A DNA stretch of 47,989 bases, from contig CALIRD010000114.1 of NCBI GenBank assembly GCA_938042355.1, positions 1-47,989 of the forward strand. The letters are read 5' to 3'. Every line of letters begins with the position of its first letter. Within the stretch, counting starts at the first letter, position 1. Shown here one piece after another: positions 24,588 through 45,197 of the stretch. This DNA is from an uncultured Thiotrichales bacterium (GTDB taxonomy: Bacteria; Pseudomonadota; Gammaproteobacteria; CAZUMV01). The translations under genes were made by a program, and so were the position numbers. The notes under the pieces are model-generated. The model searched no databases and was not told the DNA's origin. It saw nothing but the letters and a program-made list of their open reading frames with translations.

Positions 24588-24595
24588 AAACCGGC

Positions 24596-26164: not shown

Positions 26165-26288
26165 ACTTTCTTCCAGACTAAAGTGACAATATGCCAAGAG
26201 TATGCATCACCACACTATACATACCAAAGATGCTCACCGACTATTTCATACTATGAATCACATTGGGTAATCACCACACATCTGAAAT

Positions 26289-26738
26289 TTAATCCAAAGG
26301 TAATAACGTCGTACGCTTCATGGTCTCCATGACAAAACTGGCACTCACATCAAACAAGTCTGCGGCAATCAGTTTTTTGTATAAATCGTCATAATCTTTC
26401 ATGTCTTTTACAACAGCTTTAATCAGATAATCAAGATCACCACTCATTCTGTAAGCTTCCAGCACACCGGGAATATTACTGGTAACGTTGCGAAATGTTG
26501 TCATCCAGTCTTCGTTGTGTTGGTTGGTGCGCACCGAAATATACACCGTCAATGGCAAGTTAACCTTTTCCTCATCCAGCAAGGCAACTCGCGCGCGAAT
26601 GACGCCATCTGCTTCAAGATTTTGTATGCGACGCCAGCAAGCCGATTTTGATATGCCAATCTTTTCTGCGATGACACCAACCGGCAATACTGCGTCTACC
26701 TGAATTTGTTTCAAAATCTCTTTATCCAGCTTATCCAT
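26289..26738 (-). CDS. Lrp/AsnC family regulator, DecR-like
   Basis: MDKLDKEIL, SKSACWRRIQNLEADGVI, YRMSGDLDYLIK, FVMETMKRTTLLPL. Confidence 0.85.
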   Translation of the reverse strand: MDKLDKEILKQIQVDAVLPVGVIAEKIGISKSACWRRIQNLEADGVIRARVALLDEEKVNLPLTVYISVRTNQHNEDWMTTFRNVTSNIPGVLEAYRMSGDLDYLIKAVVKDMKDYDDLYKKLIAADLFDVSASFVMETMKRTTLLPLD

Positions 26739-26762
26739 GCAGATTACAACACCTATTTGAAA

Positions 26763-26796
26763 ATTGTTCCCTATAATATAGATTTAAAGGAATAAT
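26763..26796. promoter_or_regulatory. Inverted repeat in the Lrp/class V PLP enzyme divergent intergenic region
   Basis: ATTGTTCC (26763-26770) ... GGAATAAT (26789-26796), one mismatch, in AT-rich Lrp-like sequence. Confidence 0.3.
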
Positions 26797-26891
26797 ATGC
26801 TATTTTTTAACGCGACTGTGCTCGTATTAGGCACATAATTCACAATAAATCCACATAAAATACCATTTCTTATAGCCCAGACTGGACCTTG

Positions 26892-28583
26892 ATGAACAAC
26901 ACTGCCCTGATTCACTCTATCCGTAACGCGGTGATCGGTGAACGCTCCATTCTCAACACGACCTTTGGATCCAAGCCATTAGTTTATGCCGACTACACAG
27001 CATCCGGTAGAAGTCTGAGTTTTATCGAACAATACATACAAAATAAAGTTTTACCTTATTACGCTAACACCCATACCGAAACCTCTTACACTGGTGCACA
27101 AAGTACGGCACTCCGCGAACAAGCCCGTGAGATCATTCGACAGGCTATTAACGCACGTGCAGAGGATCAAATTATTTTTTGCGGTGCGGGTGCCACGGCC
27201 GCCGTCAATAAGTTAATTGATATTCTCAATATCAAATTACCAGCTGATCTGGATAGACAATACAAGCTCAAACAATCAATACCTGAAGAACAAAGACCCG
27301 TTATCTTCATCGGTCCTTATGAGCACCATAGCAACGAGTTACCCTGGCGTGAAACCATTGCAGATGTAGTGAGAATCCCGCTAAACTCTAGCGGCAAAAT
27401 CGATCAGAAAATACTGACAACAAAACTTCAACAGTACCACTCCAGACCCCTAAAAATCGGTAGCTTTTCTGCCGCATCAAATGTCACCGGGATAAAAAGT
27501 GAGGTTGATACTATCTCGGCACTGTTGCATGCGTACGACGCGTACAGCTTTTGGGACTATGCAGCAGCAGCCCCGTATATCGCTCTTGATATGAACCCTG
27601 ACATGCAGCATGAAAGTTTCAAGGATGCTGCTTTTATCTCTCCCCACAAGTTTGTGGGCGGGCCAGGTACACCCGGTATACTGGTTGTCAAACAATCACT
27701 TTTAAAAAACAGTGTACCTGCCGTTCCTGGTGGCGGCACGGTTCGTTATGTGACACCGGATGATCATCAGTATCTTGATGATGCAGAACGACGCGAAGAA
27801 GGTGGCACGCCGGGTATTGTTGAATCTGTCCGGGCCGGCCTCGTGTTCAAGCTACAACAGGAAGTCGGTCTGGATAAGATTGAAGAACTGGAGCATTCGT
27901 TTACCCAACGAGCTTTGAATCGACTCAAAACAATCGACAACCTTGAAATCCTCGGCAATCAGGAATGTGATCGTCTGGCAATTTTTTCTTTACGTTTCAA
28001 GCATGCTGATAAAGATCTACACTACGGTTTTGTTGTTGCTTTGTTAAATGATTTATTTGGTATACAAGCACGAGGCGGCTGTTCTTGTGCCGGCCCATAT
28101 GGTCACGAATTGCTGGGGATGGATATTGCACACAGTAAGGCACTGGAAGCCGAACTAGGCAATGGCTTGATGATTATGAGGCCGGGTTGGGTTCGACTTA
28201 ATTTCAATTACTTTATCGATGAAGAGACCTTTTCCTACCTACTCGATGCGCTGGAACTCATTGCTATGCACGGATGGCGTTTGCTGCCGTACTATAAATT
28301 CAATACCGATAGTGGTAATTGGTGTTTCCAAAATAGAAAACCCGAAATGGCTACCGATATAAAGGAAGTGCGTATAGAAGAACTAAATATGAATAATTCC
28401 GCAGCTGGAATTTACAGCGAGCCTTTACATAAAATGCTCCAACTGGCAGAAAAAGAACTGACTTATCAGCGACAGGAAGAGCAAAGATTCACTGTAGACT
28501 TGCCTGCCAGCGCAGAGAAGCTCAGATGGTTTGTTCTACCACAAGAGATTGAAGTGCACATTGATAGCCGCCAGAGCGCATAA
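26892..28583 (+). CDS. Aminotransferase class V PLP enzyme, cysteine desulfurase-like
   Basis: YADYTASGR, YANTHTE, EHHSNELPW, WDYAAAAP, SPHKF (PLP Lys), GGTPGI, RGGCSCAGPY. Confidence 0.85.
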   Translation: MNNTALIHSIRNAVIGERSILNTTFGSKPLVYADYTASGRSLSFIEQYIQNKVLPYYANTHTETSYTGAQSTALREQAREIIRQAINARAEDQIIFCGAGATAAVNKLIDILNIKLPADLDRQYKLKQSIPEEQRPVIFIGPYEHHSNELPWRETIADVVRIPLNSSGKIDQKILTTKLQQYHSRPLKIGSFSAASNVTGIKSEVDTISALLHAYDAYSFWDYAAAAPYIALDMNPDMQHESFKDAAFISPHKFVGGPGTPGILVVKQSLLKNSVPAVPGGGTVRYVTPDDHQYLDDAERREEGGTPGIVESVRAGLVFKLQQEVGLDKIEELEHSFTQRALNRLKTIDNLEILGNQECDRLAIFSLRFKHADKDLHYGFVVALLNDLFGIQARGGCSCAGPYGHELLGMDIAHSKALEAELGNGLMIMRPGWVRLNFNYFIDEETFSYLLDALELIAMHGWRLLPYYKFNTDSGNWCFQNRKPEMATDIKEVRIEELNMNNSAAGIYSEPLHKMLQLAEKELTYQRQEEQRFTVDLPASAEKLRWFVLPQEIEVHIDSRQSA

Positions 28584-28595: not shown

Positions 28596-28613
28596 GTGAG
28601 AACGGATTCTCAC
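28596..28613. terminator. Possible hairpin between convergent genes
   Basis: GTGAGAA-CGGA-TTCTCAC 7-bp stem; no clear adjacent U-tract. Confidence 0.25.
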
Positions 28614-29428
28614 AAGTTAAAACGCGCGCAGGTGCAACCGACTGCAAAAATCGGTATCGGTGCAAAAAAATGTACATCAGCGGTAGCGCCTTTTGCTGCA
28701 GCGGCTGCAGCAATAAAGGTGCGAATCTCAAACCCGCCCTGCCCGGCATCGTTGTACGTTTCTACATCGTCATAGGCCAGCATTGCGTCCTTGTCATTGC
28801 GCTTGAATTTCTCAAGGAATTCACGATCCCAAGCCTCGTTAATTTTTCCTGAATCGGGTGTGGCTGGCCAATGTGAAATTCCGCCAGTACCCACTAAAGC
28901 CACTTTTTCGGGCACCGCATCGCAAGCGCGTCTCAAGGCTTCACCAAATTCCCAGGCGCGATGCAGCGGTGTAAGTGGTGGACCCTGACAGTTTATATTT
29001 ACGGGAATGATGGGCAAATCATATTCCGGGGTCAAAAAATGTAACGGTACCATAATGCCGTGATCAAACTTCCACTCCTCAGCGAATGCGGTGTCTACTG
29101 TCTGCATCACTTCCGAGATGATGCGCATCGACAGATCAGGCGTACCGGGCACTTTGTGCGGCTGTATCTTGAGCCATTCCGGATCTTCAATCGGCCCCTG
29201 ATATTCTTCACCCATGCCAATACAAAAGGCCGGCATATTATTCATGAAAAAATTGGCAAAATGTTCCGCACCCACGACGATCAAGGCCTCGGCACCCGAG
29301 TTTTTTATATCCTCAGACATTATTTGGAGATTGGCGTAAAACTCATCTCTGACGACTGGGTCGGCACGCTCGGCACGAGCAGTTATTCCAGGCGCATGAC
29401 TACAAACTCCAGCATAAACTAACGGCAT
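28610..29428 (-). CDS. Extradiol ring-cleavage dioxygenase, LigB-type catalytic subunit
   Basis: SHAPG, AEHFANFF, FDHG, GGISHWP and GFEIR match the LigB Fe ligands and catalytic His positions. Confidence 0.87.
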   Translation of the reverse strand: MPLVYAGVCSHAPGITARAERADPVVRDEFYANLQIMSEDIKNSGAEALIVVGAEHFANFFMNNMPAFCIGMGEEYQGPIEDPEWLKIQPHKVPGTPDLSMRIISEVMQTVDTAFAEEWKFDHGIMVPLHFLTPEYDLPIIPVNINCQGPPLTPLHRAWEFGEALRRACDAVPEKVALVGTGGISHWPATPDSGKINEAWDREFLEKFKRNDKDAMLAYDDVETYNDAGQGGFEIRTFIAAAAAAKGATADVHFFAPIPIFAVGCTCARFNL

Positions 29429-29775
29429 TAGTCCGACTCCTGCTTTACTTCGGATGCTTTGGTAAAGTTATCACCACCGCCGGTCATTGCGTATACACCG
29501 GCACGCACGGGCCCATGCGCGGTAACGCCATCACGCATTGATTGCAGATAGTCGTCCCATTCAATTTTATGAAAGGCAGCAAAGTGCATCAGTATTTGAC
29601 CGTTCACACCCAACACATACAACAAACCTATATCAGGCTTTATTAATGCCAGACGCTCTTCTTCGCTGAGAGAGTATTTTTCCAGCAAGCTATCAACATC
29701 CTCCAGATACTGTTGCTGTACGGCGGGATCGCGGTTTAATTCGTACAATACTTTTTGCAAATAATACAAACTCAT
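29428..29775 (-). CDS. LigA-type small subunit of extradiol dioxygenase
   Basis: Start reassigned to ATG 29775 (MSLYYLQK). YLEDVDSLLEKYSLSEEERLAL...LYVLGVNGQILM; TAATG-coupled to the LigB-type gene. Confidence 0.8.
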   Translation of the reverse strand: MSLYYLQKVLYELNRDPAVQQQYLEDVDSLLEKYSLSEEERLALIKPDIGLLYVLGVNGQILMHFAAFHKIEWDDYLQSMRDGVTAHGPVRAGVYAMTGGGDNFTKASEVKQESD

Positions 29776-29776
29776 A

Positions 29777-30574
29777 TCAGTATCCTGCCGACTTTTCGCT
29801 ATCCACATAACTAATAAAGTCCGCTGCCAGTTGTTTCGTGGCATTGGCTAGCAAAGCGGCATCGACGCCCACTCCAATAAAACTGGCATTCGCAGCCACA
29901 TAGGTTTCCACCAACTCTTTCGTCACCGCTAAAACACCAGCATGCTTACCTGCGCTAATGATTGTCGAAAAAGCACTTTCAATCGCACTAATCACCTCAG
30001 GGTGGCCAGGGTTACCAATGTAGCCCATCGAGGCCGACAAATCTGAAGGGCCAATGAAAACCGCATCAATGCCTTTAACGGCCACAATTTCATCAATATT
30101 TTTCAAGCCTTCAACAGATTCTATTTGCACAATCAAACAAATCTCTTCGTTTGCGTGTTGCAAATAATCCGGTGTACGGTTCCAGTTCGCTGCTCTGGCC
30201 ATTGAGGTGCCCAGACCACGAATACCCAATGGCGGATAATACGCCGCCCGCACCAATTGCTCGGCCTGTTCGGCTGAATCTACCATTGGAATTAATAATG
30301 TCTGCACACCAATATCAAGATATTGTTTGATCAATGCGGTTTGACCTTCAACAGGGCGAACAATGGTAGCAACTGGATACGGCGCAATGGCTTGTAAATG
30401 ATGTAACACAGAATTCAGATCGAACGGTCCGTGCTCAGCATCAATCAAGACCCAGTCAAACCCTGCTCCAGCTCCAATCTCGGCCACAGTGGTATCAGGT
30501 ATGCCCATCCATAAGCCAAACATCGGTTTTTCAGCGGATAAGGAGTGTTTAAAACTATTTTTCTTAATCGACAT
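29777..30574 (-). CDS. hpaI: 4-hydroxy-2-oxoheptanedioate aldolase (HpaI/HpcH family)
   Basis: GFDWVLIDAEHGP, IVRP, LIKQYLDIG, QIES, FIGPSDLSASMG; in hpa context. Confidence 0.88.
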   Translation of the reverse strand: MSIKKNSFKHSLSAEKPMFGLWMGIPDTTVAEIGAGAGFDWVLIDAEHGPFDLNSVLHHLQAIAPYPVATIVRPVEGQTALIKQYLDIGVQTLLIPMVDSAEQAEQLVRAAYYPPLGIRGLGTSMARAANWNRTPDYLQHANEEICLIVQIESVEGLKNIDEIVAVKGIDAVFIGPSDLSASMGYIGNPGHPEVISAIESAFSTIISAGKHAGVLAVTKELVETYVAANASFIGVGVDAALLANATKQLAADFISYVDSEKSAGY

Positions 30575-30583
30575 GACCCGAAC

Positions 30584-31387
30584 TCATATGAAATTGACAG
30601 AAATGTCGCCTAACGGCCCATATTCAGCGGTAATCTTATCACCTGCCTTGACCTTCACCGGTGCTGTAAACGAACCCGATAATAAAATTTGTCCTGGCTC
30701 CAGTGCAATATCATGCTTGGCAAAGCGTTTTGCAATCCAGCAAATACCATTCGCCGGATGATCCAGTACCGCTGCAGCCAGACCAGTTTGTTCAACCACA
30801 CCATTTTGTTTGACGATAGCGCCACACCAGCGCAAATCCAGTTCCGTTGCTGACACTTGATGGCCGCCCATAATTATACCGGCGTTAGCCGCGTTATCAG
30901 AGATCGTGTCGCAAACAGTTCTAGTATAGCCTGTCTCCGGATGAATACGGAAACTGCGCGCCGCAATCAACTCAAAGGCAGGCACAACATAATCGGTTGC
31001 GGCAATGACTTCTTCCCGGGTAACATTTTCACCAAACAATCGATCTTTAAGCACGAATGCCAGTTCTACTTCTATCTGCGGATCGGTAAAGTCTGCGGCA
31101 AGAATCTCACTACCATTTTCAAACACCATGTCGTCAAGCAACACGCCGTAATCCGGAGTTTCGATTTTCATGACTCGCTGCATCGCGCGCGAGGTTAAAC
31201 CGATCTTATAGCCAACCACTTTTCGACCATCATCGATTTTTTGATCCACCCAATTCGATTGTATGGCATAGGCATCCTCCATATTCATTTGCGGATGCGT
31301 CAAAGTCACCGGATCTATCTGGATACGGTCTTGCTCAGCCTGATAGAGGTCGGCGGCTGCTTTTTGTATTTCGCTTTCAGTCAGCAC
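30584..31387 (-). CDS. hpaH: 2-oxo-hept-4-ene-1,7-dioate hydratase
   Basis: GTG 31387 preferred (MLTESEIQ). GYKIGLTSRAMQ, PDYGVLLDDM, EVELAF, DTISDNAANAG, LSGSFT. Confidence 0.9.
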   Translation of the reverse strand: MLTESEIQKAAADLYQAEQDRIQIDPVTLTHPQMNMEDAYAIQSNWVDQKIDDGRKVVGYKIGLTSRAMQRVMKIETPDYGVLLDDMVFENGSEILAADFTDPQIEVELAFVLKDRLFGENVTREEVIAATDYVVPAFELIAARSFRIHPETGYTRTVCDTISDNAANAGIIMGGHQVSATELDLRWCGAIVKQNGVVEQTGLAAAVLDHPANGICWIAKRFAKHDIALEPGQILLSGSFTAPVKVKAGDKITAEYGPLGDISVNFI

Positions 31388-31766
31388 TGATATAGTCCGC
31401 GATATTGTTTTTGTTGAACTTGGTGACAGGCTCAAGCTCTTTCATCTCAAACGACAAAGCCATGCCATGCGAAGCGAAATGATCTTCAAAATGCTTGCTA
31501 TACACTGCGAACAACACGTCAGCGGCGCTCTTACGCTCTTCCAGAGAACGACCGACTCCCAACTTGATCTCTAAATGTGCAAAGGTATGCTCGGGATTCC
31601 CGTCAGCCATGCGGTATTGATGACAGACATAGGCGCGACCTCGGAGGCCTTTTCTTGGAAATAAACCGGTAGATTCTGCAGCATCGTGTAAATCGGCAAA
31701 CAATTGCTGAATTGACTCATCAGTCTCACCCAGGTTATCCGAGTACTCCAATATAAAATGTGCCAT
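31377..31766 (-). CDS. hpaF: 5-carboxymethyl-2-hydroxymuconate isomerase
   Basis: HFILEYSDNL, GLFP, LRGRA, YRMADG, GVGRS, LSFEMKE, KFNKNNI. Begins Met-Ala rather than Met-Pro. Confidence 0.83.
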   Translation of the reverse strand: MAHFILEYSDNLGETDESIQQLFADLHDAAESTGLFPRKGLRGRAYVCHQYRMADGNPEHTFAHLEIKLGVGRSLEERKSAADVLFAVYSKHFEDHFASHGMALSFEMKELEPVTKFNKNNIADYISAD

Positions 31767-31772
31767 CTTGTC

Positions 31773-33299
31773 TTATCCTTGATTAACGCCCAGCTTGGGA
31801 ATTCTATGAGTACCGTGGGCAATACACACGTTTTTGGTTTCCATATAAAAATCAAAACTGTAATCACCACCATCTCGACCAATGCCGGATGATTTCACAC
31901 CACCAAATGGTGAAGGTAGATTACGGTTGTTTTCTGAATTCACCCATACCATACCAACTTCCAAGCCATGCGCCATACGCAGACCTCGACTTGAATCGTT
32001 AGTCCACACGTATCCTGCCAATCCATACTGACTGTCGTTGGCGATCGCCAGCGCCTGCTCTTCAGTTTCAAACTCCAGAGCCGTTAATACTGGCCCGAAA
32101 ATTTCTTCCTGCGCAATACGCATATCATTTTTAGCACCACTAAAAAGCGTTGGTGCTACATAATTACCGGCACCCAAATCTGAAAGTCTGATTCCACCGG
32201 CAGCCACTTGTGCACCATCCTCTTTAGCGATATCGAAATAGCCCATCACCTTTTCCAAATGCCCGCTGTGTACTAACGGACCGATCTCGGTTGCAGGATC
32301 CAGAGGATGACCTACAGTGATGTTTGCGATGCGCTCTTTGAGCGCCTCCATGAATCTATCTTTGATACCAGATTGAATAATTAACCGGCTTGAAGATGTG
32401 CAACGCTGACCATTCAGACTGAAGATCATAAATACGACAGCATCCAGTGCGCGTTCAAAGTCGGCATCGTCAAAGACCACCACCGGATTTTTACCGCCCA
32501 GCTCCAGATGGATGCGTTTCAATGTGTCCGCGCCTTGTCTCATAATATGACGACCAGTCGTCGTATCGCCTACCAAGGCGACCGCTTTGATAGCGGGGTG
32601 CTCGGACACGTGTTTACCGGCTGTCTCACCAAAACCATTTACCATATTCCACACTCCATCAGGCAGTCCGGCTTCTTTGGAGATACCTGCCAATATGTGC
32701 GCGCTTAATGGCGATAACTCGGCTGGCTTATGCACCACGGTACAACCAGCAGCCAGTGCTGGTGCAATTTTCCAGGTCGACAACATAAACGGTGTATTCC
32801 AGGGAGTAATGATGCCAACCGGGCCGATGGGTGATCGCACCGTGAAGTTAGTGTGCTCATCCTGATGCGATGACAAACCATCTGCCGCTTCAACCGCTTT
32901 GTCAGCAAAAAAATGGAAGTTGGCAGCACCCCGTATCGCTGCTTTTTGCATAAATTTGATCGGCTGACCACAATCGACAGATTCCACCAGAGCAATTTCC
33001 TCAGCGCGTTCAACAATCTTGTCACCGAGACTATGTAACAGTTCCTGCCTATCCTTACCCTGCAACTCTTTCCATGCCACAAAAGCGGCCGCGGCCGCCT
33101 CGCAAGCCTGATCGACATCGGCAGTCGTACCAGCCACCACTTTTCCTAATCCACTGTTGTCCACCGGCGTAAAGTTGTCAAAAGTTTCGGCTCCCTCTGG
33201 CACGACATAATTGCCATTAATGAAATGTCCCGTGAGATTATCAGCGTAGTTTGCCAGATAACCTTTGGCGGCAGCCAGATTGTGATCAAGTGTTTTCAT
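31773..33299 (-). CDS. hpaE: 5-carboxymethyl-2-hydroxymuconate semialdehyde dehydrogenase
   Basis: ITPWNTPFMLSTWKIAPALAAG, LELGGKNP, FSLNGQRCT, EEIFGPV, GIGRDGGDYSFDFY. Confidence 0.9.
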   Translation of the reverse strand: MKTLDHNLAAAKGYLANYADNLTGHFINGNYVVPEGAETFDNFTPVDNSGLGKVVAGTTADVDQACEAAAAAFVAWKELQGKDRQELLHSLGDKIVERAEEIALVESVDCGQPIKFMQKAAIRGAANFHFFADKAVEAADGLSSHQDEHTNFTVRSPIGPVGIITPWNTPFMLSTWKIAPALAAGCTVVHKPAELSPLSAHILAGISKEAGLPDGVWNMVNGFGETAGKHVSEHPAIKAVALVGDTTTGRHIMRQGADTLKRIHLELGGKNPVVVFDDADFERALDAVVFMIFSLNGQRCTSSSRLIIQSGIKDRFMEALKERIANITVGHPLDPATEIGPLVHSGHLEKVMGYFDIAKEDGAQVAAGGIRLSDLGAGNYVAPTLFSGAKNDMRIAQEEIFGPVLTALEFETEEQALAIANDSQYGLAGYVWTNDSSRGLRMAHGLEVGMVWVNSENNRNLPSPFGGVKSSGIGRDGGDYSFDFYMETKNVCIAHGTHRIPKLGVNQG

Positions 33300-33350
33300 A
33301 GCGTTTCCTCTACTTTAAGCCTGTTTCTGCATGGTTATCGCACTATTTTA

Positions 33351-33405
33351 TTAACACGTTAACTATTATTGTTAACATGTTAAGTGGTTTGCTATACAAT
33401 TGCAA
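33351..33405. promoter_or_regulatory. Two HpaR-type operators overlapping divergent sigma70 promoters
   Basis: TTAACACGTTAA (33351-33362) and perfect TTAACATGTTAA (33372-33383). Plus strand TTAACA-N17-TACAAT (33372-33400); minus strand TTGCAA-N17-TAACAT (33405-33377). Confidence 0.72.
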
Positions 33406-33466
33406 CTCGACCAGCCTCAAGAATATGGTTTCTCAGGCTACTACATAATGACAACAGGGGTGGTGT

Positions 33467-34330
33467 ATGAGATTTATTACCTATAGCTTTGCAGACAAAA
33501 TTTCCTGGGGCGCGTTAGATAAAGACGATCGGGTTATTGATCTGGGCGCTGCACTTGGTGGCGACTTGCAATCCACCATCACGAATAATCAATTAGCGCA
33601 TGCCAGAGAAGTCGCCAGTGAAACAAGCGGCAGCATCAAGCTGGAAGACGTAACACTGATGGCTCCTATCTCCAATCCGGGCAAAGTTGCCTGCATCGGC
33701 GTTAACTATGCCAATCGCAATGCTGAATATAAAGATGGCTCCGAGGCACCAAAATTTCCCAGTCTGTTTATGCGCGTTCCCGAGTCTTTGACAGCGCATG
33801 GGCAACCACTGTGGCGTCCACCGGAATCCGAGCAACTCGATTACGAAGGCGAAATTGTTCTGATTATTGGCAAAGCAGGCCGACGAATCACCGAGGAAAA
33901 TGCCTATGACCACATTGCCGGACTTACCATCATGAACGAAGGTACACTGCGTGACTGGGTGCGACATGCCAAGTTCAATGTTACCCAAGGCAAAAACTTC
34001 TGTAACTCCGGGGCGATAGGTCCCTGGATGGTTTCTGCTGATGAGTTCAGCGCTGCCGACTATGAGGATATGCAAGTCACCACAACGGTTAACGGTGAAG
34101 TGCGTCAAGACGATACTACGGCCAACATGATGTTTCCGATCAAATACATTATTAGTTATATTTCTCAATTCTTTCATCTACAACCCGGCGATGTGATAGC
34201 GACGGGCACACCTAATGGGGCCGGCGCACGCTTTGACCCCCCAAAGTATCTGGTGCCCGGAGATGTCATTGAAGTCACAGTAAATGGCGTTGGCACGCTC
34301 AGCAATGGCGTGATTGATGAGCCTCTCTAA
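33467..34330 (+). CDS. Fumarylacetoacetate hydrolase family protein, HpaG-like decarboxylase/isomerase
   Basis: CIGVNY, LDYEGE, NEGTLRDW, TQGKNF, GPW, LQPGDVIATGTP; divergent from hpaE. Single FAH domain. Confidence 0.82.
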   Translation: MRFITYSFADKISWGALDKDDRVIDLGAALGGDLQSTITNNQLAHAREVASETSGSIKLEDVTLMAPISNPGKVACIGVNYANRNAEYKDGSEAPKFPSLFMRVPESLTAHGQPLWRPPESEQLDYEGEIVLIIGKAGRRITEENAYDHIAGLTIMNEGTLRDWVRHAKFNVTQGKNFCNSGAIGPWMVSADEFSAADYEDMQVTTTVNGEVRQDDTTANMMFPIKYIISYISQFFHLQPGDVIATGTPNGAGARFDPPKYLVPGDVIEVTVNGVGTLSNGVIDEPL

Positions 34331-34811
34331 AAAAGACCCTGATAATAACGACGAGCAGTCAAAAAAATCCAGGCTGCTTAGTTTTGACCGGTCATTACCG
34401 ATGACCTTGTTGCGCGCACGCGAAGTTGTAATGGCTGAGTTCATTCCAGCACTCCAGCAACATGGCTTGTCACCACAACAGTGGCGTACCTTGAGAGTAT
34501 TGGAACAAGAAGACGGCTTGGATATGTCAGAAGTGGCTAAAAGGTGTCACCTGTTACTGCCGAGCATGTCTCGCATTATCCAGAATCTGGAATCACGAGA
34601 GTTGATATCTCGCCAAAGTGTAGCGGATGATCAACGCAAAAACGCCCTGTTCATCACCCAACAAGGACTGGCCCTGTTCGCAGTAATTGCACCTAAATCT
34701 GCCGAACGTTATGAAATCATCACCCGTCAGTTCGGGGAAGACAAGTTGGAGCAACTCTACCAGCTACTCGAGAATTTAATCACAACGCTGGAAGATCAAG
34801 AATCACCCTGA
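34317..34811 (+). CDS. hpaR: Homoprotocatechuate operon regulator HpaR (MarR family), copy 1
   Basis: SLPMTLLRAREVVM, GLSPQQWRTLRVL, LLPSMSRII, DDQR. Confidence 0.85.
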   Translation: MSLSKKDPDNNDEQSKKSRLLSFDRSLPMTLLRAREVVMAEFIPALQQHGLSPQQWRTLRVLEQEDGLDMSEVAKRCHLLLPSMSRIIQNLESRELISRQSVADDQRKNALFITQQGLALFAVIAPKSAERYEIITRQFGEDKLEQLYQLLENLITTLEDQESP

Positions 34812-34815
34812 ATAA

Positions 34816-35907
34816 CTAAATTATTGCATTGCGAATCTTGATCTCTTTACGAGGATATTTTTCTCGCTCTTCTTTGATCATACGATCCCAGACTTTTCTA
34901 AAATGCATGAACGGTCTATCTGCAGTTAACATACGCGGCTGGAATGGCTCACTATTTTCCAGTAACACCTGTTGCTGCTCGATCAAGACCTTATCTTCCA
35001 TAAACCCGGCTAACAAACTGTCCCGCAGGGAAATTGTGGTAGCCTCATTATCAAGATCATAATTTCTCATATAGCACCACCAAAAGTGTGTGGTGCTCCG
35101 TGTTTCCGGGGTCATGAACTGACAGTTTCGGTATTCTCTGACTTTATCGGTATCACCGCTGTCAGGATCCCAACCAACCGGTGCGAAGGTAGTCTCCATA
35201 AAAAATACGCCGGGCGTATAAATCGTCACCACATTACGGCGATCAACCTTAGCCTCACCCTCTGGACTTACTACAGAATGGTATGGAGGTGGTGCCGAGT
35301 TCTTATGCCAACGCGTCCATTGAAATCCATTATAATACTTTTCGATGTCCTGATGCGTCGATTGATAGGCGTACTCTTCAGAACCACCCAATGTATTTGG
35401 GTGCACAAACGCCAAATGCGAAAAGTCCGCCAGATTATCAATGATCATCATCCAGTTAGCGTCATAGTGAATTTGTTGTTCAAGACCGACATAGGCCGGA
35501 TCAGACAGAGGAGCATAGTCGTGAATGTCATCCGGGTTTGCTAATTCGGAGTCGCCCATCCAGATCCACAACATGCCACTCTTCTCAACCAGTGGATAGC
35601 TCGGCACTACAAAATTCTCTCCAATTAAATCCTGACCGGGTATTTCGATACATTTGCCTTCTGAGTCATACTTCATGCCGTGATACATACAGCGGATACA
35701 ATCACCTTCGATACGCCCTAATGACAAGGGCGCAGCACGATGACAACAACGGTTGTCCATGGCAACGTAGTTACCGCTTTCACCTCGATACATGACTACC
35801 GGCTTTTCCAGAAAGGTACGCGCCAGTGGCTTACCGTCTTCAATCTCGGATGCCCAGCCAGCGTTGTACCAACAGTTATAAACAAACAACTCTTCAGGTG
35901 TTTTCAT
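34816..35907 (-). CDS. Rieske non-heme iron oxygenase, VanA/DdmC (O-demethylase)-like
   Basis: NCWY, Rieske CCHR...CMYHG, mononuclear Fe site DNLADFSHLAFVH and EDK, TPETRSTTHFWW. Confidence 0.87.
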   Translation of the reverse strand: MKTPEELFVYNCWYNAGWASEIEDGKPLARTFLEKPVVMYRGESGNYVAMDNRCCHRAAPLSLGRIEGDCIRCMYHGMKYDSEGKCIEIPGQDLIGENFVVPSYPLVEKSGMLWIWMGDSELANPDDIHDYAPLSDPAYVGLEQQIHYDANWMMIIDNLADFSHLAFVHPNTLGGSEEYAYQSTHQDIEKYYNGFQWTRWHKNSAPPPYHSVVSPEGEAKVDRRNVVTIYTPGVFFMETTFAPVGWDPDSGDTDKVREYRNCQFMTPETRSTTHFWWCYMRNYDLDNEATTISLRDSLLAGFMEDKVLIEQQQVLLENSEPFQPRMLTADRPFMHFRKVWDRMIKEEREKYPRKEIKIRNAII

Positions 35908-35917
35908 ACGCTCACTC

Positions 35918-36379
35918 CTATTTTTTCATGGCTATTTTCTGCGTAGCCTGTGCTTCTGTGTTATCAATTATTTGTTGCAAGGTATTCATCATGATCTGCC
36001 AGTCGTAAGGTTTTATGCCCGATGCAATACGTGCATAACACTCATCCACCAACGGTTGGATTTTTTCCTCGAGACGGCGTCCTTTTGCAGTGGTACTAAT
36101 GCGTACGCTGCGCCTGTCTGAGGTGGATCGAATACGTTTCAGCAATCCCTTGTCTTCCATTCTATCAATGATGCCAACCAGACTGGGTTTGGGTAACAAG
36201 GTTTGCTTCGATATATCGCTGAGCTTGATGCCATTCTCATGCCACAACACGCGCAAGATACGCCACTGTTGTTCAGTAAGATCAAACGCTTTGAATACTG
36301 TCCGGAATTCTGGCAGCACGCTATCCAGCGTGCGGTTCATCATCATCGGCAAAGAGTGGGAGAAGTCCTGCATAAACAC
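35918..36379 (-). CDS. hpaR: HpaR-like MarR regulator, copy 2 (GTG 36379 or ATG 36373)
   Basis: SLPMMMNRTLD, DLTEQQWRILRVLW, PSLVGIIDRME, SDRR. Confidence 0.72.
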   Translation of the reverse strand: MFMQDFSHSLPMMMNRTLDSVLPEFRTVFKAFDLTEQQWRILRVLWHENGIKLSDISKQTLLPKPSLVGIIDRMEDKGLLKRIRSTSDRRSVRISTTAKGRRLEEKIQPLVDECYARIASGIKPYDWQIMMNTLQQIIDNTEAQATQKIAMKK

Positions 36380-36384
36380 CGTAA

Positions 36385-36432
36385 TATTAACTTATTAATA
36401 GTTAATATATTAACTAATTATTGAGTTGTCAA
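36385..36432 (-). promoter_or_regulatory. Sigma70 promoter with two HpaR-type operators
   Basis: Minus strand TTGACA (36432-36427)-N17-TATATT (36409-36404). Perfect 18-bp palindrome TAGTTAATATATTAACTA (36399-36416) and TATTAA-CTTA-TTAATA (36385-36400). Confidence 0.75.
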
Positions 36433-36444
36433 GAATCAGAGCCA

Positions 36445-37383
36445 TTACTCTCCACGGTAAACCACTCTGAATCCGATGTGATTGGTTGAGAAATCCAGCT
36501 CCTGTGGATGTCTGGCAGCAGGACGATATCGCTGGCAATAATTTTCAGCACATAAGAAGGAACCACCTTTTATCAGGCCCAGGTTTTTGGCTTGACTGGC
36601 TGAGTCTTCCTGCTTGACCCACTCCCAAACATTCCCGGTCATATCTGCCAGCCGGTAGCCATTCAACTCATAACAACCCACAGGAGAAGAACCGTAAAAC
36701 CCATCTTTTGCTGTGTTGAGTACAGGAAATACCCCTTGCCAGGTATTGGCCATTGCAATCGGCATCTCATCGGGCGCTACATCACCCCAACTGTATTGCG
36801 CTGACTCTAGACCACCTCGCGCTGCATACTCCCACTCGGCTTCAGTGGGCAAGTCACCTCCCGTCCACTGTGCGTAGGCGAGAGCATCCGCATAGGTAAT
36901 ATGCACCACCGGATTATCCATCATCTCATCAATAGATGAGCCAGGCCCTTCAGGCTGGCGCCAACTGGCATCAGGTATAAAGTGCCACCTGCCAGCCACT
37001 TTACTGTCAAACGATAATTTAAATGCCGCCGAACCAGCCACCAATTGCTCAACCGGAATAGTAGGGTGTAATGCCGGATCGGGCGTTCGCTCAGCATTCG
37101 TTACATAGCCCGTTTGTTTAACAAATTTCATGAATTGCCGATTCGTCACTTCATGAACATCAATACGAAATGCTGACACTTCAACATCTCTGATCGGTCC
37201 TTCCTCAGGATAGAATGCCTCCGAACCCATCTTGAAAGTACCGCCAGGAATTAAGACGCTGGTGCTTGTTAATGGCTCACAGTTGGCCTGTTTAACTTGG
37301 GTATCTGTCGCATTACTCGTGAGTAGATAAGCAAACCCGGCAATAGCGAGCGCCAATATTAAAGAAATAAGAATTTTCTGCAT
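36445..37383 (-). CDS. Formylglycine-generating enzyme (SUMF1/FGE) with N-terminal signal or anchor
   Basis: GGTFKMGS, EVTNRQF, LPTEAEWEYAARGG, DMTGNVWEW, KGGSFLCAENYCQRYRPAAR (both active-site Cys), HIGFR. Confidence 0.85.
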   Translation of the reverse strand: MQKILISLILALAIAGFAYLLTSNATDTQVKQANCEPLTSTSVLIPGGTFKMGSEAFYPEEGPIRDVEVSAFRIDVHEVTNRQFMKFVKQTGYVTNAERTPDPALHPTIPVEQLVAGSAAFKLSFDSKVAGRWHFIPDASWRQPEGPGSSIDEMMDNPVVHITYADALAYAQWTGGDLPTEAEWEYAARGGLESAQYSWGDVAPDEMPIAMANTWQGVFPVLNTAKDGFYGSSPVGCYELNGYRLADMTGNVWEWVKQEDSASQAKNLGLIKGGSFLCAENYCQRYRPAARHPQELDFSTNHIGFRVVYRGE

Positions 37384-37409
37384 GCAGCGAGTTTCTCAAA
37401 TATACCGTA

Positions 37410-38084
37410 TTAATCCCACTCTACATCCGGGAAAGCACGTAATTTCTCCAGACTATTCTTGCGCTGGTGCCAAGGAAGCTTATCTTTTGAGTCTGCTTTA
37501 GCCTGCACATCATGCGCTTCACAACCAGCGATAACTGCCTCGGCAAGCCCTGGTGGTAGCACCACTACACCATCAGCATCTGCAAGAATAATGTCTCCCG
37601 GATTTACAATAACACCACCACAAATAACCGGCACATTGAGTGAACCGGGTTGATTAGCATCCTTGGTGACCGGTGCTACACCACGCGTAAAGACCGGTAT
37701 TTGTGGCTGCTCTTGAACATGCAAGTTAAGGTTCATACAGCTGCCATCAATAACCACACCCTCGGCACCTGCCATGTTTGCAGCTTTACTCATTGACAAG
37801 CCCCATACAGCAAGCTCTTTATGTCCCGCCGCGTCGATAACAATGATATCTCCTTCTTCTATATACTTCGGTGCAACCTCAGCCATCAATCGATCGTCCC
37901 AGTAATGAGGCCGCACAGTAAATGCCGGCCCACATATTCTCCACTCAGAATGGAGCGGCTTTATTTCAGGATCACACACCTGACGAGGACCAATCTCATA
38001 TCCCGCAACACCAACATGTTGCTTGCTGACACGGTTAATCAGATCTCTAGATGGGCGTTCAAATTTTGTAATTATTTTATGCAT
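37410..38084 (-). CDS. RraA / HMG-CHA aldolase family protein, divergent
   Basis: ICGPAFTV, GDIIVIDA, GSLNVPVICGGVIVNPGDIILADADGVVV. Confidence 0.78.
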   Translation of the reverse strand: MHKIITKFERPSRDLINRVSKQHVGVAGYEIGPRQVCDPEIKPLHSEWRICGPAFTVRPHYWDDRLMAEVAPKYIEEGDIIVIDAAGHKELAVWGLSMSKAANMAGAEGVVIDGSCMNLNLHVQEQPQIPVFTRGVAPVTKDANQPGSLNVPVICGGVIVNPGDIILADADGVVVLPPGLAEAVIAGCEAHDVQAKADSKDKLPWHQRKNSLEKLRAFPDVEWD

Positions 38085-38327
38085 ACCAAGACATCCATGT
38101 TTCCGACCTTCAAATTACTCGAAAGCATTCAAATAAGGAAGTGCTTGTTATAATTAATAAATCCTGAGCTATACGAAACACATCTGGTTTTATACTATAC
38201 GGTGTCTTTATACAAAATAATTGACAGTCTCGAAGACAGTTTTATCGATATCTTCTCCCTCATGAACTTGTTGGTAGGCATAATCAGATTTCAAATATTT
38301 ACCGAGCCAACTACCGAAAAAAATATA

Positions 38328-40812: not shown

Positions 40813-42792
40813 TTAACTCGCTTCGAACGACAACAGCTCGTCGCCACCGGAAACCAGGTCACCAGAGCTAAAAAATATTTCCGTAACGGTGCCATCTTCT
40901 GAAGCAACAATCGTGTTTTGCATTTTCATTGCCTCCAACACCAGCAGCGCATCACCGGCACTCACACTGGCACCCTTCTCGACCAGTAATTCAACGACAG
41001 TACCGTTCATTGGTGCACAAAAATCACCTGCACCACCCGAAACAGAATCACCATAGTCTGGTAGTGACAAATTCAGATCGACCGTCGCATCTTCAGTAAA
41101 TACTCGGAAGTTACTATTACTTACTGCCACAACCGCTTTTTCACTGTGCCTATTTATCTCGGCAATGATGGAGTCATTCTTCAGTTGTGCGCTCACATTG
41201 CAGGTTGTTTCGTTTACGCTCACTCTGAAGTTATTGTTTGAATCCTTATCAAGATCTTCCACCACGACATGATGTATAGATTCTCCGTGCTCGAATTGAA
41301 ATCGATGGTGATTCGGTTGATTCATACGAAACGCATTTCCACTATGCCAGGGGTTATCTGATTTCGCCTCTTGTCTACGACTCAAGATACAATACAGTGC
41401 CAACATAGTTAAACTGCTATCAAGATTGATCTCGGTAGACTTGAACACTTCATCCTTGTTTTTTTCAATAAAGCCTGTGTCCAGTTTTGCTTGAGCAAAT
41501 GCTTGGGAATTAAAGATCTTTTGAAGAAAGGCTATGTTGGTAGTAACACCAAAGATACGAAACTCTTGTAACGCGGCCTGCATTCTAGTCAGCGCTTGAC
41601 TTCTGTCTTCCCCCCAGACAATTAACTTCGCAATCATCGGGTCATAATAAGGACTGATTTCGTCACCTTGCTGTACGCCGGTATCAACGCGTACATTGTT
41701 ACTCTCTGGTGGGTTTTGTAGAAACTCCAGCGTACCGGAGGTAGGTAAAAAATCATTGTCAGGGTCTTCGGCATAAATTCGGGCTTCAAAAGCATGACCA
41801 GTATGACTAAGTTGTTGCTGAGTTTTAGGTAATGACTCACCATTGGCGACGCGAAGTTGCCATTCAACCAGATCTTCACCGGTGATCATTTCCGTTACCG
41901 GGTGTTCTACCTGCAGGCGTGTATTCATCTCCATGAAGTAAAATGAGCCATCTGTATCGAATAAAAACTCAACCGTGCCTGCACCCTCATAATCTATTGC
42001 CTGTGCTGCACGCACGGCCGCCTCACCCATTGCCTGGCGTTGCTCATCAGACATGCCTGGCGCAGGCGCTTCTTCTATCACTTTTTGGTGGCGACGCTGA
42101 ATAGAACAATCACGTTCAAACAAATAGACACCATTACCATGGGCATCACAAAACACTTGAATTTCAACATGTCGCGGTTGAGTAAGATATTTCTCAACCA
42201 GCATGACATCATCTGCGAACGACGCCATGGACTCACTTTTGGCTTGCTTAAGCGCAGACTCAAATTCGTCAGCACTCCATACCTGACGCATGCCTTTACC
42301 ACCACCACCCGCAACTGCTTTCAACAGGACCGGATAACCCATCTCATCAGCTGCAGACTTTAATACCTGCAAGTCCTGATTATCACCGTGATAACCGGGC
42401 ACTAAAGGCACGTCTACTTTACTCATGATATTTTTCGCTGCAGATTTTGAGCCCATCGCTTTAATCGCAGCAACGGGTGGACCAATGAAAACAATATTGT
42501 TTGAGACACACTGCTCTGCTAACGTGGCATTTTCTGAAAGAAAACCATAACCCGGATGTATGGCATCGGCGCCTGTCTTGATAGCCGCATTGATGATCTT
42601 ATCCACCACAAGATAAGACTCTTGTGCCGCTGAAGCGCCAATATGTACCGACTCATCAGCCATCTTTACATGCAATGCATCACGATCTGCATCTGAAAAG
42701 ACGGCCACCGTTTGAATACCCATGGCCTTCGCTGTCTTGATGACCCGGCACGCTATTTCGCCTCTATTGGCTATCAATACTTTTTTAAACAT
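40813..42792 (-). CDS. liuD: 3-methylcrotonyl-CoA carboxylase alpha (biotin) subunit
   Basis: IANRGEIACR, HPGYGFLSEN, ERDCSIQRRHQK, EMNTRLQVEHP, biotinylation motif EAMKM; liu operon context. Confidence 0.9.
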   Translation of the reverse strand: MFKKVLIANRGEIACRVIKTAKAMGIQTVAVFSDADRDALHVKMADESVHIGASAAQESYLVVDKIINAAIKTGADAIHPGYGFLSENATLAEQCVSNNIVFIGPPVAAIKAMGSKSAAKNIMSKVDVPLVPGYHGDNQDLQVLKSAADEMGYPVLLKAVAGGGGKGMRQVWSADEFESALKQAKSESMASFADDVMLVEKYLTQPRHVEIQVFCDAHGNGVYLFERDCSIQRRHQKVIEEAPAPGMSDEQRQAMGEAAVRAAQAIDYEGAGTVEFLFDTDGSFYFMEMNTRLQVEHPVTEMITGEDLVEWQLRVANGESLPKTQQQLSHTGHAFEARIYAEDPDNDFLPTSGTLEFLQNPPESNNVRVDTGVQQGDEISPYYDPMIAKLIVWGEDRSQALTRMQAALQEFRIFGVTTNIAFLQKIFNSQAFAQAKLDTGFIEKNKDEVFKSTEINLDSSLTMLALYCILSRRQEAKSDNPWHSGNAFRMNQPNHHRFQFEHGESIHHVVVEDLDKDSNNNFRVSVNETTCNVSAQLKNDSIIAEINRHSEKAVVAVSNSNFRVFTEDATVDLNLSLPDYGDSVSGGAGDFCAPMNGTVVELLVEKGASVSAGDALLVLEAMKMQNTIVASEDGTVTEIFFSSGDLVSGGDELLSFEAS

Positions 42793-42801
42793 GGGTCACC
42801 C

Positions 42802-43584
42802 TTAACTCTTTGACGAACTCTTGTTCTTATCTAAAAATGCGGCGAGTCTCTTCTGCGCTTCTTCAGTACCACGCAAATCAGCAATGACCTCACAGGTACG
42901 TTTGATGATCGCATTACTGATAGGCTGGTCATTAACTTCTGCTATCAATTCTTTGGCTACACGCATGGCATGACTGCCATTGGCTAACACTATCTCGCAA
43001 TAACGCTGTACTTCAATATCAAGTTGATCATTCTCTACCACGTTACTTAACAAGCCCAATTTGAGAGCACTGTCAGCATCAATCACTTCTGCCGTTAGCA
43101 TATAACGCCGCGCCGCGCGTTGCCCGATTGCCGCGACCACATAGGGACAAATAGTGGCAGGTGCCAAGCCGATTTTTACTTCGCTCAAACATAATGTTGC
43201 TTGTGGGGTAGCGACTGCTATATCACAACAACTCACCAGCCCGACCGCACCACCATAGGCCGCCCCCTGCACTCTGGCAATCACTGGCTTACCAATCTCA
43301 TTAAGCGTTTTGAGCATGGTCGCCAAGCCCTGTGCATCGGCCAGATTTTCTTCGTAAGAAAATTCTGCCATGCGTTTCATCCAGGCCAAATCGCCTCCGG
43401 CAGAAAAACTTTTACCCTGCGCCGCCAGCACAACTACTTTTACTTGCGAGTTTTCGTCAACTTCACGAAACGCATCAGTCAGTTCAAGAATCATTTGATC
43501 ATCAAAGGCGTTGTGTTTTTGCGGGCAACACATAGTAATCCTTGCCACGCCTGTACTGTCGATATCTATTGAAACATCTTTCAT
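42802..43584 (-). CDS. liuC: Methylglutaconyl-CoA hydratase (crotonase family)
   Basis: HNAFDD, FSAGGDLAWM, GGAVGLVSCCD, SEVKIGL; located between liuB and liuD. Confidence 0.87.
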   Translation of the reverse strand: MKDVSIDIDSTGVARITMCCPQKHNAFDDQMILELTDAFREVDENSQVKVVVLAAQGKSFSAGGDLAWMKRMAEFSYEENLADAQGLATMLKTLNEIGKPVIARVQGAAYGGAVGLVSCCDIAVATPQATLCLSEVKIGLAPATICPYVVAAIGQRAARRYMLTAEVIDADSALKLGLLSNVVENDQLDIEVQRYCEIVLANGSHAMRVAKELIAEVNDQPISNAIIKRTCEVIADLRGTEEAQKRLAAFLDKNKSSSKS

Positions 43585-43586
43585 GC

Positions 43587-45197
43587 TTACATCCTGAACA
43601 CGCCAAAGCGCGTTTCTTCAATTTCTTTGTTCAGACTGGCTGATAACGCCAATGACACCACCAGTCGCGTATCGAGTGGATCAATCACACCGTCGTCCCA
43701 TAATCTGGCCGAGGCGTAATATGGATGTCCCTGTTTTTCATATTGTTCAAGTACCGGCTGTTTGAAGGCTTGTTCTTCGGCTTCACTCCATTCCTCACCC
43801 TTATACTCTTTCTGGGTTCGCTTCACTTGTGCCAGAACACCCGCTGCTTGCTCGCCACCCATGACTGAAATGCGAGCATTTGGCCACATAAACAAAAAGT
43901 TGGGATCATAGGAACGACCACACATACCATAGTTGCCCGCGCCATAGGAGTTACCGATGATGACTGTAATTTTCGGTACTTTTGCATTGGTGACTGCCAT
44001 CACCATCTTGGCACCATGTTTGGCTATACCGCCCGCTTCATATTGTTTACCGACCATGAAACCGGTGATGTTTTGTAAAAACAGTAATGGTATTTTTCGT
44101 TGGGCACAAAGCTCAATAAAGTGCGCACCCTTTTGGGCGGACTCGGAAAACAAAATTCCGTTATTGGCCAAAACACCAACAGGGTAGCCATGAATACGGG
44201 CAAAACCGCACACGAGAGTACTGCCAAAAAGCGCCTTGAATTCATCAAACTCTGAACCATCAACCAGTCGCGCGATAATCTCGCGCACATCAAAGGGTTG
44301 CCGAGCATCTTTCGGTAAAATGCCATAGATTTCTTTCGGGTCGTATTTTGGTTCAACGCTTTCGGTACGATCCAGCTGATCGGGTTTGACCCGGTTAAGC
44401 CGGCTCATGGAACGACGTGCCAGCTCCAGCGCGTGATGATCATTCTGGGCATAGTGGTCAGAGACACCCGACTCACGACAATGAACGTCAGCACCGCCCA
44501 GCTCTAAAGCGGTGACTTCTTCGCCAGTGGCGGCCTTGACCAGTGGTGGGCCTGCCAGAAAGATAGTTGCCGTATCTTTTACAATAATCGATTCATCCGA
44601 CATCGCAGGCACATAGGCGCCACCGGCCGTGCAGGAACCCATGACGACCGCAATTTGCGGAATATTTTTAGCTGACATTGCCGCCTGGTTATAAAACGAT
44701 CGACCGAAGTTATCTCTGTCTGGAAAGACCTCATCCTGTCTAGGCAGTATTGCGCCACCTGAGTCGACCAGATAAATGCAGGGTAAGTGATTTTGCTCGG
44801 CAATGAATTGGGCGCGTAAATGTTTCTTTACCGTCATGGGGTAATAACAACCGCCCTTAACGGTCGCATCATTAGCGACTATCACGCACTCTTGTCCAGC
44901 CACCATGCCAACACCGGTTATCACACCGGCAGCAGGTACGTCCTCTCCTTCATACAATTCATAAGCAGCCAGCTGCGATAACTCAAGAAAGGGTGAACCC
45001 GGGTCTATCAAGGCATTGATACGTTCGCGTACCGGTAACTTGCCGCGTGAGCGATGACGCTCCATACGTGCTTCACCTCCACCGGCAACAATACGCTGAA
45101 CCACCTGATACAAGTCATCCACTTGCGCCTGACTATGCTCAACGTTTTCCTGATACTCGGCAGAACGTGGATTAATAGTACTTTTGATTACATTCAA
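43587..45197 (-). CDS. liuB: 3-methylcrotonyl-CoA carboxylase beta subunit
   Basis: TTG start with GGAGAG SD; [42 protein letters not shown]. Confidence 0.92.

Follow-up and report, generated by a model that had tools for sequence, protein, structure and literature searches.

How a bacterium with genes for the meta-cleavage of homoprotocatechuate (3,4-dihydroxyphenylacetate) comes by this substrate is the question raised by a contig of an uncultured Thiotrichales bacterium (CALIRD010000114.1), whose 47,989 nucleotides are called the window below. A two-gene operon at 34816-36432, coding for a MarR-family regulator (MarR2) and a Rieske oxygenase (P0001), lies there beside the homoprotocatechuate (hpa) genes, while neither hpaB nor hpaC is found among the 48 window open reading frames (ORFs) in Pfam and NCBIfam scans, as an earlier sequence-only reading of this DNA had stated. 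That reading had taken the oxygenase for a VanA-like entry enzyme into the homoprotocatechuate pathway, a proposal that is now well supported by conserved linkage to hpa genes and by genome-wide co-occurrence with HpaE. When all readings of the substrate are taken together, we infer that the oxygenase very probably forms homoprotocatechuate. What is new is probably the recruitment of a known enzyme architecture as a conserved, separately regulated homoprotocatechuate entry module that replaces a flavin enzyme. The genes concerned are the following:

28610..34330, minus strand except where stated: hpa meta-cleavage genes for a LigB/LigA-type dioxygenase, HpaI, HpaH, HpaF and HpaE, and an HpaG-like gene (plus strand)
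34314..34811, plus strand: bona fide HpaR, repressor of the homoprotocatechuate operon (TIGR02337, 144.9 bits against a cut-off of 121.2)
34816..35907, minus strand: Rieske + VanA_C oxygenase gene (P0001, 363 amino acids; ORF call and Pfam)
35918..36373, minus strand: MarR-family regulator gene MarR2 (P0002, 151 amino acids), first gene of the two-gene operon; best match TIGR02337 HpaR

The oxygenase and its linkage to the hpa genes

P0001 combines a VanA_C domain (Pfam, 123 bits against a cut-off of 23.5) with a Rieske domain (81.7 bits), and neither Pfam nor NCBIfam detects an HpaB or flavin-reductase domain in it. The Rieske [2Fe-2S] motif is present (C54-C55-H56 ... C73-M-Y-H76), and 19 relatives all keep C54, H56, C73 and H76 unchanged, together with D161, the bridging residue, and H164, H169 and D305, which would bind the mononuclear iron. 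D161, H164, H169 and D305 align to D157, H160, H165 and D294 of the dicamba O-demethylase DdmC, which we take to be the metal-ligand numbers of that enzyme. An AlphaFold (AF2) model of P0001 (predicted local distance difference test score 80, predicted template modelling score 0.79) is closest to DdmC, with template modelling (TM) scores of 0.82/0.88, a Foldseek E-value of 2e-26 and 26% identity, and is followed by GdmA (7QWT; TM 0.75/0.78); profile alignments to DdmC and GdmA extend over the full length (E 4e-51 and 6e-52). No equivalog-level NCBIfam match exists for P0001, the best being SdmA with 88 bits against a cut-off of 600, and matches in the ESM Atlas are to generic Rieske/VanA_C clusters only. 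No ORF for a beta (small) subunit adjoins the gene in the window or belongs to the neighbour clusters that recur in the 80 related loci described below. As read from its sequence, P0001 is an alpha-only VanA_C-group Rieske oxygenase outside any characterised enzyme family.

DdmC (PDB 3GKE/3GB4) and GdmA (PDB 7QWT) are likewise alpha-only enzymes of about 340-370 amino acids with Rieske and VanA_C domains, and P0001 keeps their Rieske ligands, 2-His-1-Asp iron ligands and bridging Asp. It differs from them in being only about 26% identical, in altered pocket positions, in having no adjacent reductase or ferredoxin genes and in its genomic partners, which are hpa meta-cleavage genes and not dicamba or catechol genes. 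With VanAB, P0001 shares the VanA_C domain and the general chemistry, mono-oxygenation next to the ring of an aromatic acid; unlike VanAB, it has no neighbouring vanB-type reductase and is linked to the homoprotocatechuate and not the protocatechuate pathway. HpaBC, including the Acinetobacter C1/C2 type, would share with P0001 the proposed reaction, the position in the pathway and control of the HpaR type, but is unrelated to it in sequence, fold and cofactors (reduced flavin against Rieske [2Fe-2S] and non-heme iron), and the relation between P0001 and HpaB would thus be one of functional analogy only.

On the ring-cleavage side, the HpaG-like gene adjoins hpaR, and the hpaE-hpaF-hpaH-hpaI-LigA/LigB operon is divergent from it. 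HpaE and HpaH exceed their NCBIfam cut-offs (789 against 638 bits and 399 against 351.5 bits), HpaI lies just under its own (358.5 against 368.8 bits), and Pfam recognizes CHMI (HpaF), LigA, LigB and FAA_hydrolase in the cluster. The ring-cleavage enzyme (28610-29844, minus strand) is a two-subunit LigA/LigB-type extradiol dioxygenase that scores weakly against all named NCBIfam dioxygenases, with only 31.6 bits on HpaD_Fe.

A database search with the oxygenase returned 1827 proteins (E <= 0.001) with uninformative names; members of the family go by 'aromatic ring-hydroxylating dioxygenase subunit alpha' or 'vanillate O-demethylase' in current annotation. Confirmed loci numbered 504 in species-representative genomes, and the comparison draws on the best 80 of these 504 (51-94% identity), to which the locus numbers of relatives below refer. 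A locus counted as linked if the hpa proteins of the window, used as queries, had matches no more than 10 kb from the oxygenase; this held for 27 of these best 80 loci, so that homologs consistently unlinked to hpa clusters, which the sequence-only reading had named as evidence against itself, are not what is seen. A quick maximum-likelihood tree (IQ-TREE, 81 rows for the 80 loci and the window) splits the family into two clades with 99% support. The window subclade comprises 43 rows from marine Gammaproteobacteria, 28 of them hpa-linked (window included), and its sister clade 38 rows (Woeseiaceae, Burkholderiales, Bradyrhizobium), none of which is linked. Carriers of the gene include OM182, Pseudohongiella, Luminiphilus and other Halieaceae, as well as metagenome-assembled genomes (MAGs) labelled SAR86 and Arenicella; no cultured carrier from the subclade is represented in the 80 loci. 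Gene order varies between the linked loci, with at least seven arrangements, among which are the following:

MarR2-Rieske convergent with hpaR-hpaG: window, L005, L058
MarR2-Rieske beside ligB: L050
Rieske next to hpaI: L008
Rieske immediately following hpaR: L010
hpaF-hpaE-ligA-ligB-Rieske-symporter in a single operon, ligB and the Rieske gene being 5 bp apart: nine OM182/Pseudohongiella-type loci
hpaE<-|->Rieske-hpaG with a single-subunit HpcB-type dioxygenase: eight Halieaceae loci (seven Luminiphilus, one Pseudohaliea, L030)
ligA-ligB-(MFS)-Rieske, MFS being a major facilitator superfamily gene: five loci, one of them SAR86-labelled
hpaG-hpaR-hpaH-Rieske: L074

Since two different ring-cleavage enzymes are found with always the same downstream genes, this pattern of association points to homoprotocatechuate as the probable common intermediate. 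In the Luminiphilus clusters (L028-L033, L040) the single-subunit LigB/HpcB-type enzyme stands in place of the two-subunit LigA/LigB enzyme.

The association is also seen at the level of whole genomes. Fifty oxygenase-holding genomes were searched, comprising all linked ones and 23 unlinked ones (39 from the window subclade and 11 from the sister clade). In 46 of these genomes HpaE scores above its equivalog cut-off; of the four others, three have a gene truncated at a contig end and one is a genuine miss. In particular, HpaE is present in 22 of the 23 genomes in which the oxygenase is unlinked to hpa genes, against 14 of 399 genomes in an evenly drawn background sample of the same class, for which a completeness of at least 90% was requested (Fisher p = 3e-26, uncorrected for kinship). 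HpaB was looked for in the same 50 genomes. HpaB-1 is above its cut-off in two of the 50 genomes, both from the sister clade, and HpaB-2 in none, with two sister-clade genomes reaching about 690-700 bits. No bona fide HpaB was found in the window subclade, where none of the 39 genomes has an HpaB-1 or HpaB-2 match above 211 bits and 27 have no HpaB match at all. In the genome of the window, the sole HpaB-superfamily gene lies on another contig and scores 137 bits against a cut-off of 480 (HpaB-1) and 95 against 885 (HpaB-2). It codes for a 511-amino-acid monooxygenase (genome G000, contig C106; L087 7039-8574, minus strand) and has as neighbours a GMC oxidoreductase, a TonB-dependent receptor and a luciferase-like monooxygenase.

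Among the 14 background genomes with HpaE, one carries the oxygenase clade (53% identity), six an HpaB family protein and seven neither; three of the six exceed the cut-off for HpaB-1, and one has an HpaB-2 score of 682 bits. The absence of HpaB from all 39 subclade genomes, against its presence in four of the 13 background HpaE-positive genomes without the oxygenase (p = 0.003, from few and related genomes), fits a replacement of HpaB and is suggestive, not decisive. Homogentisate dioxygenase is present in two of the 39 subclade genomes against nine of the 11 sister-clade genomes. The genome of the window is a MAG of 2.24 Mb that is 72% complete, and contigs of a marine metagenome, possibly the source, match the window almost exactly. 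This genome yielded neither hmgA nor HPPD at that completeness and carries paaC, paaD, paaE and paaX, which is consistent with degradation of tyrosine and phenylalanine through aryl-acetates.

Two HpaR-type regulators and their putative operators

The oxygenase gene is preceded by its own regulator. The MarR2 ORF (35918-36379 or 35918-36373, minus strand) ends in a stop codon at 35918, and the ATG of the Rieske gene lies at 35907, leaving 10 bp between the two genes, while a GGAG before that ATG overlaps the MarR2 stop codon. The coordinates thus bear out the two-gene operon with a 10-bp gap that had been proposed from the sequence, as well as the promoter and the palindrome ahead of it. The control elements are:

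36404..36432, minus strand: sigma-70-type promoter TTGACA-17-TATATT of the MarR2-Rieske operon, matching at 11 of 12 positions
36399..36416, no strand: perfect 18-bp palindrome TAGTTAATATATTAACTA with core TTAAT-AT-ATTAA, putative MarR2 operator, overlapping the -10 box
36387..36398, no strand: second, imperfect site TTAAC-TT-ATTAA (inverted repeat I2), between the -10 box and the start codon
33351..33383, no strand: divergent control region of hpaE and hpaG with TTAAC-N2-GTTAA palindromes, putative HpaR operators (motif analysis)

The -35 box TTGACA occupies 36432-36427 and the -10 box TATATT 36409-36404, at a spacing of 17 bp. This is the top promoter-like site within 33200-38300, a region that holds seven such sites against 8.1 in shuffles and hence no excess of them. 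The 18-bp palindrome occurs once in the window against 0.03 expected occurrences. The MarR2-Rieske pair is kept in seven other loci (L005, L039, L044, L046, L050, L053, L058). In five of these (L005, L039, L044, L046, L053) TTGACA is found at the equivalent place, with TTAATATATTAAC behind it upstream of MarR2 and a second TTAAT-containing site after the palindrome, while in L050 and L058 the palindrome is degenerate or different. Because it recurs upstream of the orthologous regulator in five of seven distant loci, the palindrome reads as a phylogenetic footprint and not as a chance product of AT-rich DNA.

The relation of this site to the hpa operators is close but not one of identity. The hpa-type motif TTAAC-N2-GTTAA is present in the equivalent intergenic region of L005, L008, L010, L050 and L058, and the MarR2 site TTAAT-AT-ATTAA has equal spacing and one half-site position changed, so that both operator types follow a common design, TTAAY-N2-RTTAA. 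The 10-mer TTAACTATTA is common to both control regions and occurs only twice in the window, against 0.12 expected. The claim that the palindrome has the same core as the hpa operators therefore stands for spacing, design and this 10-mer, and has to be amended for the half-site, which is TTAAT where the hpa sites have TTAAC. The site at 36387-36398 is a hybrid of one hpa-type and one MarR2-type half-site, which may leave room for cross-talk with HpaR.

A similar qualification applies to the regulator itself. The top family of MarR2 is TIGR02337 HpaR, with a score of 98.8 bits that lies below the equivalog cut-off of 121.2, and MarR2 is 31% identical to the bona fide HpaR of the window, whose gene (34314-34811) is convergent with the Rieske gene, the two stop codons being 4 bp apart. 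The description of the oxygenase gene as HpaR-controlled is thus right in so far as its regulator is HpaR-like, but that regulator is a paralog with an operator variant of its own. Compared with Escherichia coli HpaR, the MarR repressor of the hpa meta operon, MarR2 has HpaR as its best family match and a putative operator palindrome over its promoter, and differs in the points just given, namely the sub-threshold score, the 31% identity of MarR2 to the window HpaR, and the half-site. The HpaR family match and the one-position operator variant speak for an entry role of the oxygenase in the hpa pathway. The paralog would probably repress its own promoter through the palindrome over the -10 box and be released from the operator by the aryl-acetate substrate.

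Proposed ring hydroxylation and its alternatives

Which aryl-acetate the oxygenase would act on is the point at which several explanations diverge, and the genes that accompany it in related loci bear on the choice:

ActP-like sodium:solute symporter: 12 loci
TonB-dependent receptors: 13 loci
Aromatic-acid:H+ carrier of the MFS: seven loci
Amidase closest to indoleacetamide hydrolase (449 bits against a cut-off of 532): nine loci
Nitrilase: L039, L044
Aldehyde dehydrogenase (ALDH, StyD-like), closest to aminobutyraldehyde and phenylacetaldehyde dehydrogenases: recurrent neighbour
PaaX and PaaK: Luminiphilus loci

All upstream enzymes among these neighbours make aryl-acetic acids, none suggests a methoxy group, and the oxygenase neighbourhoods hold no methoxy-specific genes or genes for handling one-carbon units. 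In the favoured mechanism, the linked carriers would import an aryl-acetate, which the alpha-only, DdmC/GdmA-like mono-oxygenase would turn into homoprotocatechuate for degradation by the neighbouring LigAB-HpaEFGHI genes. The most likely reaction would be hydroxylation of 4-hydroxyphenylacetate (4-HPA), perhaps of 3-hydroxyphenylacetate (3-HPA), at the adjacent ring carbon; the oxygenase would then take the place of the flavin enzyme HpaBC without being homologous to it. Such hydroxylation, of 4-HPA and/or 3-HPA, is ranked first because the gene holds a conserved core place in clusters without another entry enzyme, because its neighbours make plain aryl-acetates and because the genomes that carry it have no homogentisate route; taken by itself, this reading is held tentatively, at slightly less than even odds. 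The Rieske hydroxylase replacing HpaBC, which the sequence-only reading had put forward as its alternative, is thus the version now favoured, in line with the plain aryl-acetate neighbours and a subclade without HpaB and, in 37 of 39 genomes, without homogentisate dioxygenase. In the open literature, subscription journals and supplements being outside its scope, no Rieske oxygenase was found tied to hydroxyphenylacetate hydroxylation, no homovanillate demethylase gene was found identified, and no sequence was found for the 4-chlorophenylacetate dioxygenase considered below.

Several points weigh against this preference. The nearest solved structures, DdmC and GdmA at 26% identity, are both O-demethylases, and the placement of the clade as homoprotocatechuate-forming rests on sequence and gene context. 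Lacking HpaB is not unusual in itself, since seven of the 14 background genomes with HpaE carry neither enzyme, and absences are soft where, as here, most genomes are MAGs. Weak HpaB-superfamily matches (105-211 bits) do occur in 12 of the 39 subclade genomes, Luminiphilus included, and these proteins could be divergent hydroxylases. The sister clade, in which hpa linkage is never seen, may act on another substrate. As for electron supply, no VanB-type or other dedicated reductase gene adjoins the oxygenase gene, no vanB-type FNR-[2Fe-2S] reductase is found in the window or among the recurrent neighbours in the 80 loci, and PaaE, encoded in the paa operon, is the one FNR-Fer2 fusion that the genome yielded.

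The affinity to O-demethylases is the main support for a demethylase of methoxyphenylacetates (homovanillate, homoisovanillate, 4-methoxy- or 3,4-dimethoxyphenylacetate), in which the methyl group would be hydroxylated to give formaldehyde and homoprotocatechuate, a product that would serve the linked hpa genes equally well. The positions of DdmC that we take to be its substrate contacts, N230, H251 and W285, align to M237, Q263 and S297 of P0001; the pocket residues differ, but the alignment does not separate a hydroxylase from a demethylase. Among the closest characterised relatives by sequence and fold, GdmA is named in two articles as the guaiacol O-demethylase (PMC12445004, PMC11837543), and homovanillate would call for a separate enzyme, since the tested VanAB enzymes do not accept it (PMC9867520). 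However, the identity to these O-demethylases is low, a constant member of hpa clusters in genomes without another route to homoprotocatechuate fits a main and not a niche substrate, and the neighbouring amidase, nitrilase and ALDH indicate unmethylated aryl-acetates. Demethylation thus ranks second, as a possible but unlikely reaction, and homovanillate as the preferred substrate, the first choice of the sequence-only reading, finds no specific support in neighbourhoods of this kind.

The same product would also arise if the oxygenase were a 3,4-dioxygenase of para-substituted phenylacetates (4-chloro-, 4-bromo-, 4-amino- or 4-sulfo-), whose unstable diol loses the substituent. For the two-component 4-chlorophenylacetate 3,4-dioxygenase of Pseudomonas sp. 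CBS3, this reaction has reportedly been described biochemically. Such an enzyme would share the alpha-only Rieske architecture, with a reductase as its second component, and would fit the hpa linkage; but none of the 80 loci shows a context of dehalogenation, deamination or desulfonation, and substrates of this type are unlikely to explain a conserved core position among hpa genes in open-ocean bacteria, which makes this explanation quite improbable. About as improbable, if a touch less so, is that the oxygenase makes no homoprotocatechuate, acts on another aromatic acid or an amide and is co-located with the hpa genes because aromatic catabolic genes cluster. The 38 unlinked rows of the sister clade would fit this, as would a gene that in the window is convergent with hpaR instead of lying inside the hpa operon and has its own regulator. 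It is difficult to reconcile with at least seven independent gene orders, in some of which the gene is a true operon member separated by 5 bp from its neighbour, and with HpaE in nearly all of the unlinked genomes against its rarity in the background.

For ring hydroxylation by P0001, electrons would have to come from a reductase encoded elsewhere. In four loci (L039, L044, L046, L053) a GR-type ferredoxin reductase (Pyr_redox_2 and Reductase_C) is transcribed divergently from MarR2-Rieske, with the operator region in common; it has no ferredoxin gene next to it, and the next ORF in L039 and L044 codes for a glyoxalase-fold protein. Homologs of this reductase in the genome of the window are only 25-31% identical (contigs C144 and C110). 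A PPOX-type flavin mononucleotide (FMN) flavoprotein comes directly after the oxygenase in L049, L054, L055, L057 and L061, of the SAR86-labelled group, and in L039; in L054 (TIGR04025, 217 bits) its gene follows at a distance of 45 bp and is read from the same strand, whereas L039 and L061 have it on the opposite strand. This protein might be an unconventional electron donor or catalyse a second step.

Surrounding genes and wider meaning

Other genes of the window complete the picture of the locus. HpaF (CHMI family; 31377-31766, minus strand) starts MAHF..., with Ala and not the catalytic Pro after the initiator Met, as in L010, L050 and L058, while 13 other hpaF genes of related loci start MPH... 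(in one of them the called N-terminus is longer). Immediately upstream of the hpa cluster, 23160-28583 holds genes for a flavin amine oxidase (475 amino acids), a FAD_binding_4 oxidase (533 amino acids), an AsnC/Lrp regulator and a 564-amino-acid class-V aminotransferase/SufS-like protein, which could form an upstream amine or amino-acid module. Neither oxidase has a specific NCBIfam name. These genes do not appear to travel with the oxygenase, as both oxidases and the aminotransferase-like gene have no match in any of the 80 loci and the AsnC regulator has weak matches only, in L009 and L074. A route from tyrosine through 4-hydroxyphenylacetamide to 4-HPA is speculative.

On the other side, directly upstream of the MarR2 promoter and on the same strand, lie genes for an FGE-sulfatase-domain protein and an RraA/aldolase-like protein (36445-38084, minus strand), both kept in L005, the relative that is 94% identical; in L021, L057 and L061, too, FGE-domain genes are found at a few kb from the oxygenase. 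Further away, a leucine/isovalerate (liu-type) cluster headed by a MerR regulator (40813-46774, minus strand) contains an acyl-CoA dehydrogenase, a carboxyltransferase, an enoyl-CoA hydratase and a biotin carboxylase with a BT_MCC_alpha domain. A BlaI/BlaR1-type pair of a Penicillinase_R repressor and a Peptidase_M56 sensor (15795-18030, plus strand) is followed by a 680-amino-acid ORF without family match.

The paired operators of the locus would offer a simple natural example of specificity divergence between paralogous repressors. If the clade makes homoprotocatechuate, a function would be given to a large family that is annotated only generically (1827 proteins and 504 confirmed loci), the supply of the ring-cleavage substrate would be explained in many marine bacteria that have hpa meta-cleavage genes but no HpaB, and the pathways predicted for aromatic amino acids and phytoplankton exudates as they are turned over would be corrected. 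For biocatalysis, the interest would lie in a single-gene, flavin-independent conversion of 4-HPA (or, on the rival reading, homovanillate) to a catechol, with hydroxytyrosol and L-DOPA-type hydroxylations or lignin-monomer demethylation as examples of use. More tentatively still, the clade may represent a fourth, iron-sulfur type of 4-HPA 3-hydroxylase that would catalyse the missing first step of an aryl-acetate route for tyrosine-derived carbon in widespread marine Gammaproteobacteria, with two paralogous HpaR-type repressors, whose operators differ at one position of the half-site, separating the control of entry from that of ring cleavage.

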